From the NCBI GenBank assembly GCA_964389975.1, contig CAYMGJ010000001.1, positions 22,240 through 86,239 of the forward strand: DNA of 64,000 nucleotides. Reading direction: 5' to 3'. Positions 2,256 through 24,592 of this stretch are shown piece by piece. Numbering within the stretch: position 1 is the stretch's first letter; each line of letters opens with the position of its first letter. The DNA is from an uncultured Candidatus Saccharibacteria bacterium (lineage in GTDB: Bacteria; Patescibacteriota; Minisyncoccia; Phycocordibacterales; PALSA-1337). The notes below the pieces were generated by a model, which was not told the origin of the DNA, did not search any database, and worked only from the letters and a program-made list of their open reading frames with translations. The position numbers were made by a program, and so were the translations under genes.

Positions 2256-3810
2256 TATTGCGTTCAGTTTTATTATCTATAGAACAGACCGAACAAATAA
2301 AATAAATAAATCATGGTTTTATTCATGCATTTCCTTTTCCCTGTGGGCACTTGGGTTGACCGGTGTGACTTTGTCTAAAATGGAAAGTTCAGCGATTTTT
2401 TGGCAGTATTTATTGGATGTGTCAGCAATATTTCTTCCTTTCTTCTATCTTGTCTTTATTTTTAATCTCTTGAAGTTAAAAAAGATATCTATAATCTATC
2501 TTTTTGCATTAATTGCATCCGGACTTGCTTTGTTCAGTTTTACTCCGCTATTTAAACACGGGGTAACAGTACTCTATGGTTTTTATTGGATTAAACCAGG
2601 TGAATATTATATAGTTTTCCCAGCATATTTTTTATCAGTTGCTGTAATAACTCTGGGGTTATTAATAAGGCAATATTTTATATATAAAAAAGATAGCTTA
2701 TTAAGATCTCAAATTAGGAATACTCTAATAGCAGGAATTATTGGCTATACTGGTGGGCTTACAAATTTTTTTCCACAATTATTTAGTATCTATCCCTATG
2801 GGAATTATCTAGTTATTCTTTATATAGTTTTCATGGTTTATGGGGTTTTAAAATATAAACTTCTTAGTACCAAGGTCATTTCTGCACAAATATTCTCTAC
2901 TGCTCTTATATTGGTATCTCTGTTTAATCTTTTAAAATCAGAGCAAATTAATGATTGGTTGTTAAATTTTTTGATCCTCCTTCTTATTTCAGTCTTCAGT
3001 TATTTTTTGATAAATAGTGTGAATGAAGAAGTAAGAGCCCGCGAAAAAATAGAAAAACTAGCAACTGATCTCAAGGTGGCAAATACACGTTTAGTCGAAC
3101 TTGATAAACAAAAATCTGAGTTCGTATCATTTGCAACCCATCAGCTTAGAGCTCCTCTTACTGCAATGAAGGGATACACCTCTCTTATGCTTGAAAACGA
3201 AATGGGGACTCTTTCAGCTGAGGTTCGCACTGCTATTTCTCGCATTTATGAATCAGCCAAGACTCTAACTTCTATAGTTGATGACTATCTCAATATTTCT
3301 CGTATTGAGCTCGGTACTATGAAATACGCTTTCTCGGTTCTCGATCTAAAAGTTATGGTTTCTAATGTTATCGGAGAACTTAAGCCTAATATTGAGAAAA
3401 GCGGTCTTGTTACATCTTTTTCAACATCTCCATCAGGAGAATCTGAACGATTTATGGTCCGAGCCGATCAAGACAAACTTAAACAGGTTATAGCTAATCT
3501 CATTGATAATTCAATTAAATACACTCCTCAAGGTTCTCTTAACATATCTCTCATTAAGGATACGGATAAGAGAATAATTACATTTAAGATAAAGGATACA
3601 GGGGTAGGTATCGCCCCTGAGGTTATGCCGAAACTTTTCTCAAAATTTGTTCGTGCTGATAATGCTAATAAGCAAAATATCTATGGAACAGGTCTTGGAC
3701 TCTTTGTGGCAAAAGAGATAGTACTGGCTCATCATGGAAAGATCTGGGCTGAGTCTGAGGGGGATGGAAAGGGTAGTTGTTTCTATGTTGAGTTAGAAAT
3801 GTCAGTATAG
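2212..3810 (+). CDS. membrane sensor histidine kinase (multi-TM N-terminus, HisKA + HATPase_c)
   Basis: H-box FVSFATHQLRAPLTAMKGY; G-box GTGLGLFVAKEIV; multiple N-terminal hydrophobic helices. Confidence 0.85.
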   Translation: MNLFSISSLILCLSSIAFSFIIYRTDRTNKINKSWFYSCISFSLWALGLTGVTLSKMESSAIFWQYLLDVSAIFLPFFYLVFIFNLLKLKKISIIYLFALIASGLALFSFTPLFKHGVTVLYGFYWIKPGEYYIVFPAYFLSVAVITLGLLIRQYFIYKKDSLLRSQIRNTLIAGIIGYTGGLTNFFPQLFSIYPYGNYLVILYIVFMVYGVLKYKLLSTKVISAQIFSTALILVSLFNLLKSEQINDWLLNFLILLLISVFSYFLINSVNEEVRAREKIEKLATDLKVANTRLVELDKQKSEFVSFATHQLRAPLTAMKGYTSLMLENEMGTLSAEVRTAISRIYESAKTLTSIVDDYLNISRIELGTMKYAFSVLDLKVMVSNVIGELKPNIEKSGLVTSFSTSPSGESERFMVRADQDKLKQVIANLIDNSIKYTPQGSLNISLIKDTDKRIITFKIKDTGVGIAPEVMPKLFSKFVRADNANKQNIYGTGLGLFVAKEIVLAHHGKIWAESEGDGKGSCFYVELEMSV

Positions 3811-3815
3811 TTTCT

Positions 3816-4703
3816 TTGTCTAATGTTATATTATTGTTACAATCAGAATATGAAATCAAGAGGCTTTTTACACTCATTGAACTTCTCGTAGTTATATCTG
3901 TCATATCACTTCTCTCAAGTGTTGTGCTTGCTGTAACAAATACAGCTCGTGAACGTGCACGTATTGCCGCTTCACAGACATTCAGTGGATATAATTTTCG
4001 AAATCTAGGTGCTGAAGCAGCTTTTTCTTTTAATTTCGATGAAGGAACTGGTCTTGTAACAAATGATTTCTTTAATAACTATAGTGCAAACCTCATCAAT
4101 GTTAACTGGAGTGCTGAAACACAAAACAACAAGGGGAGTTCCATGTATTTCCCTGGAATTGGTCCAGGGGCAGGGGCTGCAAATCAATATGTGTATATAA
4201 CCGGTCCAGGAGGGGTTCCTAAACAGGTGATGGTACCTACAGTTGTTACTGTGTCGGGGTGGATAAAGACAGCAACAGATTCATATGGAACTGTTTTTAC
4301 CAATAGAGGAAGTAGTGATACAGGCGTTGCGGGTAGTGGTAAATTTGCCTTCCTCATTACCACAAAAAGACTGTATATATATGCAAACAATGGGACGCCG
4401 TCCCTCTCCATGATTTCTCAGAAAGCAATTGCTGATAACAAATGGCATCATGTTGCATTTACATCAGATGGAACTCTTTGGATTCTTTATATAGACGGAA
4501 AAGAAGATTCTCGAATGGTTAATACCATGGGAGGAACGGCAGGGTGGGGAAGAATTGGGGCTGATGGCGCCTACTACACAACAGGATATCTTGATGACGT
4601 TAGTCTCTACAATCAATCCCTCACCTCTTCACAGATTGAATATCTCTACGCACAGGGAGTTGATTCTCATAGGGATTTTGCATCATCTCCTTCATATCGA
4701 TAA
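3816..4703 (+). CDS. type IV pilin-like (pseudopilin) protein with LamG/concanavalin-like domain; frame problem at 5' end (see findings)
   Basis: FTLIELLVVISVISLL prepilin N-terminal helix; WHHVAFTSDGTLWILYIDGKE laminin-G-like segment. ORF track starts at TTG 3816 with no RBS. ATG 3850 gives MKSRGF but is out of frame because of a T5 run at 3865-3869. Confidence 0.65.
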   Translation: MSNVILLLQSEYEIKRLFTLIELLVVISVISLLSSVVLAVTNTARERARIAASQTFSGYNFRNLGAEAAFSFNFDEGTGLVTNDFFNNYSANLINVNWSAETQNNKGSSMYFPGIGPGAGAANQYVYITGPGGVPKQVMVPTVVTVSGWIKTATDSYGTVFTNRGSSDTGVAGSGKFAFLITTKRLYIYANNGTPSLSMISQKAIADNKWHHVAFTSDGTLWILYIDGKEDSRMVNTMGGTAGWGRIGADGAYYTTGYLDDVSLYNQSLTSSQIEYLYAQGVDSHRDFASSPSYR

Positions 4704-16905: not shown

Positions 16906-16978
16906 GGGCCCGTAGCTCAGTTGGTAGAGCAATCGCTTTGCAAGCGAAAGGTCAGGAGTTCGAATCTCCTCGGGTCCA
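16906..16978 (+). tRNA. tRNA-Ala (anticodon UGC)
   Basis: Cloverleaf: GGGCCCG acceptor stem with G3:U70, D-arm GCUCAGUUGGUAGAGC, anticodon loop UUUGCAA, T-arm GGAGUUCGAAUCUCC; CCA not encoded. Confidence 0.9.
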
Positions 16979-17078
16979 CAACTATTGATTACAATATATA
17001 ATTGTGGTATAAAATATCACAGTTCTTTTATATTATCTACAGGATAGTCATAGCCAAAAGATCTTAATGAATTGAGGT

Positions 17079-17654
17079 TTGTTGGCTATGACTACCCGCA
17101 CTTTGTGGATGTCCTCTAGTATAAACAAGCGAAAACCAAAAGGAAAAAACGCTATGTACTGTAAACAAACAGGAAAACTGCTTGCGCGTGTGGCAGAGTC
17201 TATGCCTCACATGCATTCAGATGCGATGCGACAATGGATCGATAATCCATTAGGACTACAAAGAGTTCTCAAGAGGGCTTTAAATCCTTCTGCGATCATC
17301 CGACCGGCAAATGTGTCGGTTTGGAAAACCAGTTTAGCAAAGGGTGACTTTGCTGCAGTGACGCCCGCACAGCTTGGCTTCGCAAATGGGAATGTGACGG
17401 CTGGAGAGATTTGCGATCGAGCGATTGAAATCAGCTTAGAATATTGCACTAGAGGATCTTTTAATCAGTTGCCAGTACAGGAAGTGAACAACGGTTTGAT
17501 CGTGCTGTTCGAGCCCGTGAGTCCATACGCAAGTCATTGTGGTTATATCGAGTTTTACAAAGGTGAAGAAAACCGCTCGATTAGCGGTCAGTTGAATCTA
17601 AACGAAACTCGGTCTGGCAAAGTTCGCTGGCTCTTCCTCATACCCCCAAAGTAA
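17079..17654 (+). CDS. hypothetical protein (island ORF 1; start may be internal ATG MYCKQ)
   Basis: ORF track; first ORF 3' of tRNA-Ala; terminator immediately downstream. Confidence 0.4.
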   Translation: MLAMTTRTLWMSSSINKRKPKGKNAMYCKQTGKLLARVAESMPHMHSDAMRQWIDNPLGLQRVLKRALNPSAIIRPANVSVWKTSLAKGDFAAVTPAQLGFANGNVTAGEICDRAIEISLEYCTRGSFNQLPVQEVNNGLIVLFEPVSPYASHCGYIEFYKGEENRSISGQLNLNETRSGKVRWLFLIPPK

Positions 17655-17692
17655 AGTTAAATGCTTTTACGATATTTGGTGACCAAATCCTA

Positions 17693-17728
17693 CCCCAAGC
17701 AAGTTCGTTGCTTGGGGTTTTGTGTTTT
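17693..17728 (+). terminator. rho-independent terminator
   Basis: ccccaagcaagttcgttgcttgggg hairpin followed by ttttgtgtttt. Confidence 0.65.
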
Positions 17729-17827
17729 CATATCACCACTCAAATACTTCAAAATATTTCTCAAAATTCCGCATTTGTAAGGGTGAAATGCGAACAACCG
17801 CAGAGTCACATCTGTGGTTTGTCTTTT

Positions 17828-17924
17828 TTATTTCAAAATTTCTTTTAAATACCACACCCCTTCACAAACTGGTTTTAGAAAAGTTAAACTGAGATCCATC
17901 CACAGAAATAGCCCTATAAATAGG
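17828..17924. repeat. 97-bp direct repeat, copy 1 (island intergenic repeat)
   Basis: ttatttcaaaatttcttttaaataccacacc...atccacagaaatagccct; ~96% identical to 19441-19538. Confidence 0.85.
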
Positions 17925-18097
17925 CAAGAGTTGAAACTAACAAGTGATTGCCGGGTTTTTTGAATCTAGGAGAGGTTCGAATTGAAATATTTACAATTAT
18001 TATAATTTATGTTATTATCTAGTCAGAACCGCACCTTGAAAGATGTCGGTTTTTTTCAATTTTCCACAACAATCAACAATCCAAATAGGAGGACCTT

Positions 18098-19270
18098 ATG
18101 TCTCAAAAAAATCAAAACTTTGGAGAGCCTATAGACCGGCTTCTTCGTAGTTACGAAGTTACTATGCAGTTTCTCTCTTTCGTGATTGAAATCTTCACAA
18201 AAGGACAGACAGGTCAGTTTGCTGATCCTTTCTGGAATCGGATCTTAAAAGGTCCAGTCACACATTGGCAAAGTTTTCGAAATTCTTTGCTTAAAGTGCA
18301 CACTGATGGATTTGACGTTGAAAAATACGTTGGACCAACACACAATAGTCATCCTCAAAGTATGAAGGAGTTCGAGTTCACCCAACCACGCTTGGTGGCA
18401 ATGCGTGTTGCTGAGTGGACAAAATCCTCTCGCAGAGTTTACCGTGTGCCAAAGGACCTTCAGTTGCTTTTGGCAGCCACAAGCCTTCAAGGTATCGACT
18501 GGTCAATGATCAAATGGCCTTTCGACTCGTTACTCATCTCTCTCGAGGAGCCACTGGTTTTTGGAGGGAAGACAATCGATGCGATCTTGATTGCCAAAGA
18601 AATTGTTCATGGTCATGAAGTCATGGCTATTGAAACTATTGCTACCGACTTGCCAACTATGGAGTCGGTGTTCATTGGCGATCAGCGTTCGAGGATTAAA
18701 AAAGCAATCCAAAAGGGCGACAAGGTTTCACTGGATTATGCAAAAGAAAAACTTGCATCCGCCGTCAAGAACCGTATGAATGGAGGTGGCAAAATATGGC
18801 TGACAAAAAAAGCCTGTTTTGAACCCGGAGGATTCGCTTCGAAATTTGAAGAACTTGATCTCGGAAAGGCAGATGAAACCTCGGCTTCAAAGGTGATCTT
18901 CAGGATCGTCTTTGGGTTGATGCTCTATCTACAGTCTCGTCCAACAAAGGAACTCATTCCAAAAGGATGGGAGCTGTCAACGTTTGAACGGCGAGAGGGT
19001 CCGAGTCGTGTAATCAGACTTGCATCGGAGGTTTGTGTGGTAAAAAGCATCTACTCACTGACTAGTGCAGAACGAGAGGTGCTTGAGCCAATTCTTCGTG
19101 GTGGTTATGTGGAGATTGCTCCGCATCACCGTGAAGGTCACTGGCGTCGTCCTCCCGGAAAAGGAGATGACCCTAATCATCCAAAGACTGTGTGGGTCTG
19201 TCCGACAATCGTGAGGCGTGACAAACTTGCTGATGGAGGATTGCCTCTTGGAAGCACTGAAGTCGTCTGA
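18098..19270 (+). CDS. hypothetical protein (390 aa; island ORF 2), GC-rich
   Basis: AGGAGG RBS 6 nt before ATG; no recognisable motif; ~50% GC against ~37% flanks. Confidence 0.5.
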   Translation: MSQKNQNFGEPIDRLLRSYEVTMQFLSFVIEIFTKGQTGQFADPFWNRILKGPVTHWQSFRNSLLKVHTDGFDVEKYVGPTHNSHPQSMKEFEFTQPRLVAMRVAEWTKSSRRVYRVPKDLQLLLAATSLQGIDWSMIKWPFDSLLISLEEPLVFGGKTIDAILIAKEIVHGHEVMAIETIATDLPTMESVFIGDQRSRIKKAIQKGDKVSLDYAKEKLASAVKNRMNGGGKIWLTKKACFEPGGFASKFEELDLGKADETSASKVIFRIVFGLMLYLQSRPTKELIPKGWELSTFERREGPSRVIRLASEVCVVKSIYSLTSAEREVLEPILRGGYVEIAPHHREGHWRRPPGKGDDPNHPKTVWVCPTIVRRDKLADGGLPLGSTEVV

Positions 19271-19293
19271 CATCATTCAGTCACAATATTAAC

Positions 19294-19334
19294 AAGCCCC
19301 TTCCATGTTCAATCCGTGGTTGAGGGCTTTTTTA
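19294..19334 (+). terminator. rho-independent terminator
   Basis: aagcccc...gagggcttttttag hairpin + T-run immediately after ORF. Confidence 0.5.
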
Positions 19335-19440
19335 GTTCACGAAAATAAACAAGACCAGATATTGAAACCCCTCGACTGCTTCACAAGCTCCCCGTTACCC
19401 TTGACGAGGTCATTCAGCAACTTGGCGATCTTGTTAATTA

Positions 19441-19538
19441 TTATTTCAAAATTTCTTTTAAATACCACACCACTTCACAAACTGGTTTTAGAAAAGTTAA
19501 ACTGAGATCTATCCACAGAAATAGCCCTAGAAATAAGG
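19441..19538. repeat. 97/98-bp direct repeat, copy 2
   Basis: Near-identical to 17828-17924 (3 substitutions, 1 indel). Confidence 0.85.
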
Positions 19539-19561
19539 GTTATTTTGATATTTAACAAGTA

Positions 19562-19591
19562 TTGACAAATAGATATTTAGTATGCTATAAT
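19562..19591 (+). promoter_or_regulatory. sigma-70-type consensus promoter (TTGACA-18-TATAAT)
   Basis: Exact TTGACA at 19562-19567 and TATAAT at 19586-19591. Confidence 0.55.
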
Positions 19592-19805
19592 ATAAACAAT
19601 CAAGTTAGATCATTGAAAATTAAATAGTGAAAGTTAGAAGATTGGCTTGTTCCAGTTGGAGTAGTATCTTGCATACCTAACCTCTTGTGGGGATTAGGTG
19701 TTCAAGAAAACTGCTCCGACAGAAAACAATGGAGCGGGTCAGTCACATGGGTGGGATCATCCCGCATTGTGAGCTAGTCCGCGAGACTGCAGAAAGCCTG
19801 CATAT
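19592..19805 (+). promoter_or_regulatory. ~210-nt GC-rich structured 5' leader (candidate cis-regulatory RNA)
   Basis: Several local hairpins (cctaa..ttagg; gctcc..ggagc; tggga..tccca) and a long-range ggctt/aagcc pairing that overlaps the region just upstream of ATG 19806. Confidence 0.3.
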
Positions 19806-20696
19806 ATGAAAACAATCGAAAATAATACCGTTAAGCTCGTTAGTCACTTCCAACGTGGTGGTTGGGTCAGTCAATGGGATGGACAAAAGTTTGTCAAAGT
19901 CGCCAGTGCCGCGGAGAATACCTGGTATGACGATGGTGACGACTCAAAAGAAGTCGCCCTTCCCGAAGGTTTCAAGGGTGCGGTCGGTGAGTTCCATGGC
20001 GTGTCATCATCGGTCGCATTGGTTGGATTCACTGATGAGGAGCTCAATGCTCCCTCACCAGTTCAAGGTTGGGACAATGTTGGTGTTGGATTTCGTGCTG
20101 AAAGGTGCGAACTCATCAGGAACCTTGGGGATTACCTCAAGGCAATTGCCAACAACTCGTTCGTTGCCATTCCTGAAAAGGGTGACGTACACACAGTCTC
20201 CGGCAATCGCCTCGTCGAACTTCCGTTCGATTGGGGTGATCAAGCAGCAAATCACTATGCTATCATTTCGCCGAAAGGTGAAATTCTAAGCGAAGTGAGT
20301 GGCTGTGGCGATCAAGCCCCTTACCCGCTCAAGGCGGATATGACAAAGGACTGGGAGTTCTCCTCGTTGTTTGAGGACATGAATCGTAAAAACGAGCGTA
20401 ACAACGCCGCGTTCAAGGCGGGGTGGTCCGACAAGTGGCAGGAAGTCGCGAATCATCTTCGCTCTTGCTATAAGATGGGTCAAAACCCCCTGCCAACACT
20501 TCGCAAGAAGTATACTGGCAAATGGGTTTACCATCAGGCAGGAACATTGCCGGAAGATAGTGAAGTCGGGGAAGTCCGCTTCACCGAACTTCCCCAACGG
20601 GAGAACGAAACAGCGACAGCGCCGGACGGACACTCCAGTTTCTGGGGCAACGTTTGGAATCGCTGGCAGGTGAGTTACATCCCTGCAACGCTTTGA
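19806..20696 (+). CDS. hypothetical protein (296 aa; island ORF 3), GC-rich
   Basis: ORF track; ~52% GC; no recognisable motif. Confidence 0.5.
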   Translation: MKTIENNTVKLVSHFQRGGWVSQWDGQKFVKVASAAENTWYDDGDDSKEVALPEGFKGAVGEFHGVSSSVALVGFTDEELNAPSPVQGWDNVGVGFRAERCELIRNLGDYLKAIANNSFVAIPEKGDVHTVSGNRLVELPFDWGDQAANHYAIISPKGEILSEVSGCGDQAPYPLKADMTKDWEFSSLFEDMNRKNERNNAAFKAGWSDKWQEVANHLRSCYKMGQNPLPTLRKKYTGKWVYHQAGTLPEDSEVGEVRFTELPQRENETATAPDGHSSFWGNVWNRWQVSYIPATL

Positions 20697-20719
20697 AGGG
20701 CGTTCAACAAAATCTTCAA

Positions 20720-20752
20720 CCCTCGAGCAATTTGGCTCGGGGGTTTTATTAT
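20720..20752 (+). terminator. rho-independent terminator
   Basis: ccctcgagc-aatttg-gctcggggg hairpin followed by ttttatt. Confidence 0.6.
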
Positions 20753-20824
20753 TCCAATTTTTTAAATATCACACTCCTCCACATCCTTAGTAAGGGCCAT
20801 TTAGCTAGAATTCAAGTATAGATA

Positions 20825-20853
20825 TTGACAAATCTATTATATAGTAGTACTAT
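20825..20853 (+). promoter_or_regulatory. candidate sigma-70 promoter (TTGACA-17-TACTAT), shares ATATTGACAAAT with 19558-19571
   Basis: TTGACA at 20825-20830; -10-like TACTAT 17 nt downstream. Confidence 0.4.
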
Positions 20854-20910
20854 CAAGATCGGGTTCTTGGATAAAACCGAGGACAGATTGAATTAAAAAT
20901 AATACATGAA

Positions 20911-21324
20911 GTGAGAACTCAAACTAATTCTTTCTGCCTCAAAACAGAAAGGAATAGTGTGTGTGATCACCAGTCGCTAGTAGGTTACGAAGAGTATGCA
21001 TTCTTTGGTAGGAATTGTCTGTCCTGCCTAAACCCGGGGGAGACCTCACCCTACGATGCAGCTGTTAAATATGCTGCAAAGTTTCCGGGTGCTTGTGTGA
21101 TTGAGGAGAGGGATGGCTTTCGGATCTTTGGACCGAGTAAAATCAGTCTCTCATCTCTATCACAAGAGGATGTGGAGTTACTCGAGAGATTTGCAAGTGG
21201 GTCTGCTTTACCTCCTTTGTCAGAACATGACAGAAAGGTGCTTACAGATTTTCTCAGGACACCTCTTGAGGATCATATCGAAAGATGGAAAAAGAACATT
21301 CCCTGGAGGAATGAAGAAACGTAA
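20911..21324 (+). CDS. hypothetical protein (island ORF 4; true start uncertain, possibly GTG near 20958)
   Basis: ORF track; Cys-containing N-terminus; terminator downstream. Confidence 0.35.
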   Translation: MRTQTNSFCLKTERNSVCDHQSLVGYEEYAFFGRNCLSCLNPGETSPYDAAVKYAAKFPGACVIEERDGFRIFGPSKISLSSLSQEDVELLERFASGSALPPLSEHDRKVLTDFLRTPLEDHIERWKKNIPWRNEET

Positions 21325-21331
21325 CTAAATT

Positions 21332-21364
21332 GGCCGTCACTCTGTGTGGCGGTCTCTTTTTATT
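21332..21364 (+). terminator. rho-independent terminator followed by degenerate copy of island repeat motif (tttatttcaaaattttt)
   Basis: ccgtcac-tct-gtggcgg hairpin then tctcttttta. Confidence 0.4.
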
Positions 21365-21410
21365 TCAAAATTTTTAAAATGTGAATATCTCTGTTATATT
21401 GATTTAATAT

Positions 21411-23544: not shown

Positions 23545-23772
23545 ATGTTTCAAAGTTTTCTGTTAAAGACCATGCTCAAGAAGCAGATGAAAGGAGTTCC
23601 ACAAGAACAACAAGATCAGATTTTCGCTATGATTGAAAAGAATCCTGATTTTTTTATGAAAATCGCTCAAGAGGCACAGGAAAAGATAAAGGGAGGGATG
23701 CCGCAACAGCAAGCAATGATGGCTGTTATGCAGGCACATGAGAAAGAACTTCGTGAAGTGATGGGGAAATAG
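23545..23772 (+). CDS. small hypothetical protein (75 aa, Gln/Met-rich)
   Basis: ORF track. Confidence 0.35.
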   Translation: MFQSFLLKTMLKKQMKGVPQEQQDQIFAMIEKNPDFFMKIAQEAQEKIKGGMPQQQAMMAVMQAHEKELREVMGK

Positions 23773-23817
23773 GGGATTGACAGAGGAAGGTTCTCCCCAC
23801 TATACTTATCTCCAGTT

Positions 23818-24147
23818 ATGCTCGTCGTTAGATTGATGTGTTTGATGTATATCGGCGGTATCGCTGGTGAAGATCGGATTTCGTCTCGTTATGACGATAT
23901 CCACGCATGGGTATTTGCTCAAAGCGATGTCTATCGCTCGTATGGACCTCCACCAGATTCACTGTTTCTTAGAGTACCAGTCGAACAGGTTTTTCGTGTC
24001 ATGCATCCAGATGCATGTCCAGTTCGTTCGACACCCGTCATCGTTCCGTTTCAAGGGATTACACTCCCTCATCAATCATCTCAACAGATGATTCCGTATC
24101 GTTACCGCAGGTGTATCGCCCAAGACTGGGTGCCTCCTCCGGTATGA
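23818..24147 (+). CDS. hypothetical protein (109 aa) in GC-shifted segment; coding status uncertain
   Basis: Promoter-like TTGACA-17-TATACT at 23780-23812, strong terminator at 24188-24218, but no RBS and an overlapping second-frame ORF. Confidence 0.25.
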   Translation: MLVVRLMCLMYIGGIAGEDRISSRYDDIHAWVFAQSDVYRSYGPPPDSLFLRVPVEQVFRVMHPDACPVRSTPVIVPFQGITLPHQSSQQMIPYRYRRCIAQDWVPPPV

Positions 24148-24187
24148 AAGGTTTGCGTTTTTGTTTTTGGTTTTTTGCTTAAGGATA

Positions 24188-24218
24188 GCGGCTCTCCACC
24201 AGGGGGAGCCGCTTTTTC
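24188..24218 (+). terminator. rho-independent terminator
   Basis: agcggctctcc-accag-ggggagccgc followed by ttttt. Confidence 0.7.
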
Positions 24219-24268
24219 GTTCCATATGTAGTGTATACTTTATTACTAGAGGAAAGGAGGTGATACGT

Positions 24269-24502
24269 ATGAAAGATGATGAAGAAACAATGCTTGAACC
24301 CTATGTGGATTTCTTTGTTGAAATAGAAGGGGCATTGACTGCTCATCCATCGAAGGAAGAGATTGCTCGAAAGTGTCGAAGAATTATTCTCACAGGTGTC
24401 AAAGAAGATAAACATCCTTCAGGTCCAGCTATTCTCCAAAGAGTTCTTGCTCAACACAGACCATCTGTCCGTGATTCGCGACCAGTAAGGTTTGTCTCTT
24501 AG
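24269..24502 (+). CDS. small hypothetical protein (78 aa)
   Basis: GGAAAGGAGGTG RBS before ATG 24269; hairpin ccggtcacatacttgtggccgg downstream. Confidence 0.4.
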   Translation: MKDDEETMLEPYVDFFVEIEGALTAHPSKEEIARKCRRIILTGVKEDKHPSGPAILQRVLAQHRPSVRDSRPVRFVS

Positions 24503-24592
24503 TCATCATCAAGACTCCGGTCACATACTTGTGGCCGGGGTTCTTTGTACCCAATCTAGCCCCAAATCAACACGTATGCTACACTCTCTACC

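Follow-up and report, generated by a model that had tools for sequence, protein, structure and literature searches.

The DNA analyzed here, hereafter the window, is a stretch of 64,000 nucleotides (nt) from contig CAYMGJ010000001.1 of an uncultured Candidatus Saccharibacteria bacterium; all coordinates are window positions unless one of the related contigs or loci with which it was compared is named, these being designated by L-numbers such as L033. The closest matches of the genome are metagenome-assembled genomes (MAGs) of Saccharibacteria or Patescibacteria, and the related contigs are labeled Candidatus Saccharibacteria or Patescibacteria. The subject of this work is a 98-nt repeat that recurs within a variable island of 4.4 kb, lying between the gene for tRNA-Ala(UGC) and zwf (table 1). 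The island starts directly 3' of the tRNA, whose terminal bases together with the trailer have the sequence GGGTCCACAA, and the promoter of the first cassette comes directly after it, within 10 nt; uvrA, uvrC and ddl are found upstream, a small membrane-protein open reading frame (ORF) and then zwf downstream. The four island ORFs are all on the plus strand and have a G+C content of 0.45-0.52, as against approximately 0.39 in the surroundings. Each of them is a self-contained cassette, with its own promoter-like site, a long leader of 60-210 nt and an intrinsic terminator. The region between ddl/tRNA-Ala and zwf is variable in related genomes too, and the tRNA-Ala anchor is also present in L002, L006, L010, L013 and L033.

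Table 1. Features of the island between tRNA-Ala(UGC) and zwf, in window coordinates.
Feature	Position	Strand	Remarks
tRNA-Ala(UGC), island anchor	16906..16979	+	ARAGORN; Rfam 71.4 bits; intact
ORF1 promoter and leader	16985..17153	+	promoter-like sites 16975-17015; inverted repeat in leader
ORF1, 166 aa	17154..17654	+	gene call in L001/L035
ORF1 intrinsic terminator	17692..17718	+	11 pairs, T-run
Post-terminator module A0	17725..17792	+	90% identical to L033 695-762, there after a different ORF
Orphan terminator-like hairpin, no ORF	17796..17819	+	terminator scan; immediately before repeat copy A
Repeat copy A	17825..17922	+	L box TTATTTCAAAATTTCTTTTAAATA, R box CTTCACAAACTGGTTTTAGAAAAGTTAAACTGAGATCC, then ATCCACAG (putative degenerate copy of tRNA end)
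ORF2 cassette	17990..19270	+	promoter 17990-18018; conserved leader hairpin; ORF2 18098-19270, 390 aa
Hairpin and T-run ending ORF2 cassette	19294..19333	+	conserved in L028, L004, L007, L002; missed by simple terminator scan
Pseudogene remnant	19337..19437	-	~30 C-terminal codons of a convergent gene (143 aa) intact in L028 (7258-7689); LNDLV..ELVKQSR shared
Repeat copy B	19438..19535	+	same boxes as A; then hairpin ~19518-19548; then -35 of ORF3 promoter
ORF3 cassette	19562..20745	+	12/12 promoter 19562-19591; structured leader ~19655-19805; ORF3 19806-20696; terminator 20718-20745
Repeat copy C	20746..20790	+	L box plus start of middle part; R box not recognizable
ORF4 cassette	20825..21354	+	promoter 20825-20853; ORF4 20911-21324; terminator 21332-21354
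Repeat copy D	21357..21385	+	L box only; distal end of array; 17/17 bases match at 21357-21373
ORF5, 212 aa	21411..22049	+	predicted N-terminal membrane segment; low G+C

Copies A and B, as delimited by a direct-repeat search, are 98 nt long and 96% identical without gaps, with four substitutions (blastn E = 2e-43); the initial annotation had placed the same pair at 17828-17924 and 19441-19538, with approximately 96% identity, three substitutions and one indel, which holds in that frame. Weaker similarity between the two runs on past copy A to about 17955. The segments following the core are not significantly similar in the comparisons of B with C and of B with A (p = 0.18 and 0.07, respectively). 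In the alignment, the family divides into an L box, TTATTTCAAAATTTCTTTTAAATA, and an R box, CTCCTTCACAAAYTGGTTYAGAAAAGTTAAAC. Copy C matches at 88% over 24 nt (20760-20783), with a gapped extension back to 20746, and occupies the position of the full-length copy that L033 has at 2513-2597. Repeat length thereby declines with distance from the tRNA, from the full A and B to the partial C and the approximately 30 nt of D, a shortening that fits the newest insertions being nearest to the tRNA. The 14-mer core TTATTTCAAAATTT occurs exactly three times in the window, always within the island, and no copy of the repeat was found elsewhere in the 64 kb, so that within the window the element is specific to this block.

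Other parts of the initial description required amendment. Among the degenerate copies that it listed, those corresponding to C and D are real, whereas the one at 17745-17772 belongs to the separate module A0 of approximately 68 nt, which holds the hairpin CGCATTT-GTAAGGGTG-AAATGCG (in L033, the equivalent module is followed after approximately 45 nt by GGACCACAG and then by a -35 box). Only C and D obey the rule that a copy comes right after the terminator of an ORF: they directly abut the terminators of ORF3 and ORF4, whereas A follows an orphan terminator that closes no ORF, and B lies approximately 105 nt past the ORF2 terminator hairpin and abuts a truncated pseudogene. The segment aacaagt(g)attg shared after the two good copies is indeed present, and falls on the -35 region of the promoter that comes next; the version in B, AACAAGTATTGACA, makes up the 12/12 promoter of ORF3.

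The same tRNA-Ala-to-zwf hotspot of a sister strain is represented by L033 and L034, with nucleotide identity of 87% in zwf and 93% in the ORF4 cassette (a look-up of identical Ddl proteins for close strains returned only the contig studied here). L033 has four small ORFs in an order and combination unlike those of the window, accompanied by the same repeat: the full-length copy 2513-2597, which is 83-85% identical to A and B, the right half of the repeat at 1605-1643 and a rearranged copy at approximately 3140-3203, all confined to the array. Two of the R boxes in L033 end in AAGTCCACAA, and the TTGACA -35 box of the next cassette lies 2-3 nt later. The 8-mer GTCCACAA that closes both of these junction copies is the end of the tRNA-Ala region (its last 8 nt), and GTCCACA is found only three times on both strands of L033, namely at the tRNA end and at the two junctions. 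In the window, the promoter and leader of ORF1 type adjoin the actual tRNA end, and in L033 they adjoin the GTCCACAA of a repeat; the L033 sequence 1610-1827 is homologous to the window from the 8-mer rightwards and unrelated to its left. ORF4, for which L033 holds the one close homologue, presents a comparable junction, as the homology of its cassette to L033 2597-3136 extends from the -35 box onward and this start falls 2 nt past the 8-mer.

The cassettes also occur as independent units in other genomes. From promoter to terminator (approximately 18007-19365), the ORF2 unit shows 68-90% nucleotide identity to segments in 10 or more other contexts, on contigs that share nothing else of the island, and the multiple alignment shows conservation from the -35 box onward. 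In approximately nine of the 17 contexts there is a tRNA gene within 300 nt or, in L007, a tRNA 3' end truncated by the contig edge, which the unit follows: the unit is found just after ddl and tRNA-Ala in L002/L003/L021, L006, L010 and L013, and no more than 300 nt from tRNA-Ser, tRNA-Met or tRNA-Thr in L022, L025 and L030. It stands beside a TraG/VirD4-like gene in L004/L005. Within an integrative element of L028 (2519-12951) lies the ORF2 homologue that is closest among species-representative genomes (93% amino acid identity). Besides a large serine recombinase on the minus strand (2519-4105), this element encodes an HTH_17 protein and a type III restriction-modification system (methylase and Res helicase), and the homologue is followed there by a convergent membrane-protein gene of 143 codons. 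Homologues of ORF3 occur, in each case as an insertion of one gene, at three loci unrelated to one another (L014, L017 and L018): one site separates a DsbA-like gene from uvrD, one adjoins an rve transposase, and one lies between ndk and map. Their homology to the window extends from 19562, or from within the leader (19655-19658), to near 20686, close to the stop codon, and in the case of L014 begins exactly at the TTGACA of the window promoter (19562). An additional homology, between window 17945-17985 and the post-tRNA spacer of L006, was considered and discarded, being unsupported by MAFFT.

The membrane-protein gene of L028 provides a further landmark, since a stump of it persists in the window (table 1) and its homology stops within a few bases of 19438, the start of copy B. 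The truncation at this point of a gene that is intact in L028 indicates a module with a discrete left end meeting different neighbors: the left end of the repeat abuts a terminator in A, C, D and the L033 copies, or the truncated gene in B, while its right end meets different cassettes. The left edge of repeat B is a rearrangement breakpoint.

A different post-ORF repeat is present in L002, L006, L010 and L013. It opens with TTTTCTTTTGTCT and closes with a copied 3' end of tRNA-Ala, and no consensus structure was found for it in these four loci. Three consecutive small ORFs of L010 are each followed by a terminator and then by TTTTCTTTTGTCTKGAA, and after the first of them an element of approximately 130 nt ends in CTGTGACCGAATCTCCTCG.GT, as it does in L006, L002 and L013. 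This ending copies the segment of tRNA-Ala from the T-loop to the 3' end, over up to 19-20 nt in L002, L006 and L010 and over a shorter stretch in L013. Because two unrelated families behave alike, a terminator, a repeat and a piece of tRNA placed after small ORFs constitute a recurring architecture in these genomes. On L030, a Paceibacterota contig that also has an AcrVA2-like gene, tRNA-Asp and tRNA-Met are each followed, 150-230 nt downstream, by a 19/20-nt copy of their 3' end (2648-2897 and 4014-4283), an arrangement that resembles an 'empty' att duplication and is also seen at L002 4546-4715. In L006 (1645-1757) and L010 (1228-1340), the genuine tRNA-Ala is closely preceded by a tandem pair of pseudo-copies, 42 nt each, of its 5' part (GGGCTCGTAGCTGTCTTGGTAGGTATACAAC).

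A small RNA was among the functions proposed for the repeat in the initial annotation, and a conserved structure was envisaged; neither finds support in our analysis. RNA folding of copy A is no better than that of shuffled sequences on both strands (z = 0.68 and 1.0), and the lower value of copy B (z = -2.3) is owing to a hairpin lying downstream, of which A has a degenerate form. The alignment of five copies folds with a consensus energy of only -0.68 kcal/mol and no useful covariation, and searches of Rfam, at the gathering threshold and at E ≤ 1, returned tRNA only. A weak internal promoter-like site (TTCACA-18-TAAACT, at 17861-17890 and 19474-19503, with 9/12 matches) and the hairpin with T-run after copy B would be compatible with the repeat encoding a small RNA or a structured RNA that acts in cis, but the internal -10 is destroyed in the L033 copy r1, and with the folding results we deem such an RNA highly improbable. 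A minus-strand mini-ORF that could be read from the repeat (MVFKRNFEI...) was also rejected, for its copies diverge downstream and in B its remainder is the stump of another gene.

When folded as single-stranded DNA (ssDNA), the repeat again does no better than shuffles on either strand (z from -0.6 to +1.95), which argues against a site of attC type or an ssDNA promoter of the kind found in plasmid leading regions. The array does recall chromosomal integrons in having a repeat after every ORF and all ORFs in the same orientation, while the anti-defence gene and its TraG-like neighbor in L004 recall plasmid leading regions. Against a folded ssDNA site, and equally against a miniature transposon of the MITE (miniature inverted-repeat transposable element) or REP (repetitive extragenic palindromic) type, are the facts that every cassette has its own promoter, that neither IntI nor any other recombinase was found in the island or the scanned window ORFs, that the repeat search reported no inverted repeat within the element, and that neither terminal inverted repeats nor target duplications can be seen at the copies, which in the window and in L033 are confined to the array and whose ends are not inverted copies of each other. 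These possibilities are largely refuted, and we would retain for them only a very slight chance.

The constant location of the repeat between a terminator and the next promoter raises the question of control or insulation of the downstream cassette, by regulator binding or by an UP or insulator element. It is AT-rich with a loose dyad symmetry, abuts the -35 box in L033 and precedes a 12/12 promoter in B; moreover, the initial annotation, in considering a regulator-binding promoter region, was correct insofar as the trailing aacaagtattgaca is part of a promoter (-35). The spacing between repeat and promoter is not constant, however, the next -35 being approximately 2-3 nt away in L033, 42 nt in B and approximately 83 nt in A, where a decayed -35 lies in between. 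In addition, C and D retain only the part that is farthest from the promoter, homologues of ORF2 and ORF3 elsewhere keep, and would therefore use, the same promoters without the repeat, and the island encodes no DNA-binding protein recognizable with the Pfam, PHROG, PADLOC and NCBIfam libraries. We consequently hold a control or insulator function to be improbable.

The interpretation that we favor, and to which we would give an even chance of being right, is that the repeats are att-type junctions produced by serial integration at the tRNA and since reshuffled by recombination. It builds on the repeat itself, the cassette architecture, the presence of the cassettes elsewhere, the GTCCACAA junctions in the sister strain and the breakpoint at B, all observed directly, and the last three of these speak for the cassette boundary or recombination site that the initial annotation had listed among its candidates; from them we infer site-specific integration as the generating mechanism, and likewise the enzyme involved. 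In this scheme, single-gene units, each with a sigma-70 promoter, a long leader and an intrinsic terminator, would be arrayed at the 3' end of tRNA-Ala(UGC), with a junction module of 85-130 nt, formed by the L and R boxes and ending in GTCCACAA where well preserved, between the terminator of one unit and the -35 box of the next. An incoming circle would recombine with the tRNA end so that the tRNA is rebuilt intact at the left, while the arm of the element and a copy of the core would stay at the right end of the unit, and the next arrival would push older units inward. The 98-nt repeat would then combine the element arm, in the form of the L and R boxes, with a decayed core, represented by ATCCACAG in the window. 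As no recombinase was found in the island or in the scanned window ORFs, mobility would need an enzyme supplied in trans, and the units would be mini-elements akin to cis-mobilizable elements (CIME) at best. The sole lead to such an enzyme is the large serine recombinase that accompanies the 93%-identical ORF2 homologue in L028.

The history of copies A and B can be outlined within the same scheme. The repeat is 83-85% identical between strains, less than the 87-93% of the neighboring coding DNA, and the 96% identity of A and B thus reflects recent duplication or recombination within the strain; of the two causes that the initial annotation had offered for this identity, recent duplication is therefore retained and constraint is not. 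Most likely, the AcrVA2-like segment carrying ORF2, together with the stump of the neighboring gene, recombined into the array through the repeat and so gave rise to the flanking copies A and B. The contrast in identity and the weak continuation of A/B similarity towards the ORF3 promoter together suggest that the last event in the strain was an insertion or exchange of the AcrVA2-like segment within the repeat, which could have been homologous rather than site-specific.

Several results weigh against integration at the tRNA as the origin of the junctions. No recombinase, transposase or integrase was recognized in the island or among the approximately 35 other window ORFs that were scanned (at least 150 aa, mainly housekeeping, three of them without a Pfam hit), nor was a tyrosine recombinase in particular, and no evidence of excision, circular forms or empty sites was seen. 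Being less conserved than coding DNA between strains, the repeat gives no sign of purifying selection, and its family is known from two strains only, the window and L033, where the two junction copies are paralogues and not independent observations. The 8-nt match of L033 is short (shuffle p of approximately 0.04-0.07, ignoring position), whereas ATCCACAG, the window's own putative copy of the tRNA end, is indistinguishable from chance when taken alone and lies 42-83 nt upstream of the next -35 box without adjoining it. The weak similarity of A and B towards the -35 of ORF3 looks more like a duplication by homologous recombination than like two independent integrations. Furthermore, exact 27-mer, exact 23-mer and degenerate 23-mer searches of viral, genome and metagenome collections returned a single chance match in a coding region (L020), and the whole island had no match among phage and plasmid records. 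A likeness between the R box and the 3' half of the tRNA that is perceived by eye was unsupported beyond the 8-mer in local alignments against shuffles.

Some of these results would be equally expected if the repeats were neutral filler devoid of any recognition function and passively duplicated, with A and B deriving from homologous recombination of RecA type (Campbell-type insertion of a circle or a double crossover after DNA uptake) that brought in or exchanged the AcrVA2-like segment and relied for homology on intergenic sequence already in place, and the short copies being decayed older duplicates. This account would accommodate the high identity of A and B next to the low conservation of the family, the weak homology that continues into the -35 of the next promoter, the lack of a recombinase nearby and the window copies without a convincing tRNA-end core. 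It leaves unexplained, however, the discrete ends of the module that meet different neighbors on both sides, the ending of the L033 repeats in the tRNA 8-mer exactly at two cassette starts, and the copied tRNA-Ala 3' end with which an unrelated repeat family of other relatives closes as well. We thus regard passive duplication as possible but doubtful.

Tandem islands that are anchored at tRNA genes and bounded by partial tRNA copies are well known. The tycheposons of Prochlorococcus form islands seeded at tRNA genes, including tRNA-Ala, with partial tRNA copies between elements, and their successive integrations push older elements inward while degenerate remnants accumulate (bioRxiv 10.1101/2020.12.28.424599). 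The ssrA islands of Dehalococcoides have a 20-bp repeat with an adjoining conserved 15-bp motif and a serine recombinase, the cargo of one island being approximately 7 kb (PMC3146451), and CIME are units without integration and transfer genes that accrete with integrative and conjugative elements (ICE) and integrative and mobilizable elements (IME), as in ICESt1/CIME of Streptococcus (PMC5704250). Accretion of the CIME or ssrA kind resembles the present case in the array at a tRNA 3' end, the co-oriented units, what appear to be copies of a gene 3' end combined with a conserved motif, and the lack of an integrase of its own. The units found here differ in being single genes of 0.6-1.6 kb rather than several to many kb, and complete promoter-leader-ORF-terminator modules; no helper integrase was found for them in the window ORFs scanned, and their junction is long (85-130 nt) with a tRNA-derived core that is short (8 nt in L033) or decayed (in the window). 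Tycheposons, which share with our island the location at tRNA-Ala, carry a tyrosine recombinase, replication modules and multi-gene cargo; such hallmark genes are lacking in the island, the host of which belongs to the Saccharibacteria and the cargo of which is an AcrVA2-like gene and ORFans.

Integron arrays of Vibrio type, in which the repeats are attC sites, are comparable in their co-oriented one-gene cassettes, in the repeat of approximately 100 nt after each of them and in constituting a strain-variable accessory reservoir. The island nevertheless has no IntI, attI or Pc, a tRNA gene stands at the head of its array, its repeat lacks the palindrome and folded strand of attC, and its cassettes possess promoters and terminators of their own, integron cassettes being generally promoterless. 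The autonomous promoter-gene-terminator units between other genes, with one cargo gene of the AcrVA2/FinQ family, are also reminiscent of phage 'morons' and anti-defence islands; here the array belongs to the chromosome and adjoins a tRNA, the island lacks phage genes, and the other three ORFs have no family assignment. What is unusual is the single-gene autonomous unit, with long conserved junctions, in a Saccharibacterium host with AcrVA2/FinQ-family cargo.

Saccharibacteria are ultra-small, host-dependent bacteria with streamlined genomes, and to our knowledge little is known of gene exchange among them. From strain to strain, the single-gene cassettes at the tRNA-Ala-to-zwf hotspot differ. 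Should the repeats be recombination sites, the hotspot would illustrate how accessory genes, including a member of the AcrVA2/FinQ family, may be sampled at very small genomic cost, and the size range of tRNA-targeted integrative units would extend down to one gene. If they are only scars, it would still be a clean example of the growth and decay of an island beside a tRNA gene. We consider it rather unlikely, though worth stating, that Saccharibacteria and perhaps other Patescibacteria possess an integron-like cassette system at tRNA genes, in which single-gene units with a promoter, structured leader and terminator of their own are captured, stacked and reshuffled at a tRNA 3' end by a recombinase acting in trans, the repeats of 85-130 nt are the recombination sites, and the cargo is rich in genes of anti-defence or inter-element conflict such as AcrVA2/FinQ. 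In practical terms, the junctions and the strong, autonomous promoters of the cassettes point to a natural site for insertions and to modules for expression that could aid the genetics of Saccharibacteria.

Concerning the cargo, no hit to the Pfam, PHROG, PADLOC or NCBIfam libraries was obtained for the four island ORFs, apart from the assignment of ORF2. The latter, like most of its 54 homologues, has a precomputed match to PF26125 'AcrVA2-like', although the local copy of Pfam gave no ORF2 hit. Its C-terminus contains the motif H343-x-R345-x-x-H348 (HHREGHWRRPPG), which is invariant or nearly so among homologues and has the same spacing as H286/R288/H291, the residues required for AcrVA2 activity (bioRxiv 10.1101/2022.11.29.518452). 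A Foldseek comparison of the AlphaFold2 (AF2) model of ORF2 with 350,000 PDB chains placed AcrVA2 crystal structures (7ci2, 7ci1) in the three best positions, the match to 7ci2_A having a probability of 0.95; TM-scores of the matches were low (0.26-0.31). By profile, motif and predicted fold, ORF2 is assigned to the AcrVA2/FinQ family, and its presumed anti-CRISPR-like character follows from this membership. Members of the family occur widely on mobile elements (bioRxiv 10.1101/2022.11.29.518452); the viral contig collection contained no sequences related to ORF2 or ORF3. On an ENA contig of 36,556 nt, four reported, divergent AcrVA2-like paralogues (P0029, P0040, P0044 and P0046) suggest a local expansion on one element.

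ORF3 belongs to a very small family, with 15 members only in 5.8 billion clustered proteins. Its AF2 model (mean pLDDT 89.8) is beta-rich with a helical insert and has no significant match among PDB folds (best E 0.015, TM 0.13). The 5' leader of approximately 150-165 nt is highly conserved and structured (window 19655-19805; L014 9835-10005; L017 1150-1322; L018 9838-10005), blocks such as GTGAGCTAGTCCGCGAGACTGCAGAAAGCCTGCA being near-invariant though the proteins are 66-82% identical. The four distinct sequences fold into three stem-loops with a consensus energy of -53.9 kcal/mol and 47 pairs, four of which show compensatory changes, and no Rfam match was found at E ≤ 1. On this comparative basis, the leader is a candidate for a new cis-regulatory RNA of mobile cassettes in Saccharibacteria.

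The leader of ORF1 contains a 27-nt inverted repeat (17042-17068 and 17071-17097, 81% complementary), which is kept in L033 1713-1763 in the leader of a different ORF. The N-terminal 43 residues of ORF1 are 40% identical to those of the L033 ORF 1822-2436 (blastp E = 9e-8), and the two sequences suggest a shared module of leader and N-terminus combined with variable C-terminal parts. ORF5 is absent from the L033 hotspot, in which the shared DNA resumes at the equivalent of window 22106, and probably represents the final variable unit ahead of zwf. Beyond the latter gene, the ORFs 23818-24147 and 24270-24503 form two further small promoter-ORF-terminator modules (window 23775-24560), situated between a 75-aa ORF just 3' of zwf (23545-23772) and ychF; given that L033 has no counterpart of window 23875-24552, this looks like a second small variable spot.

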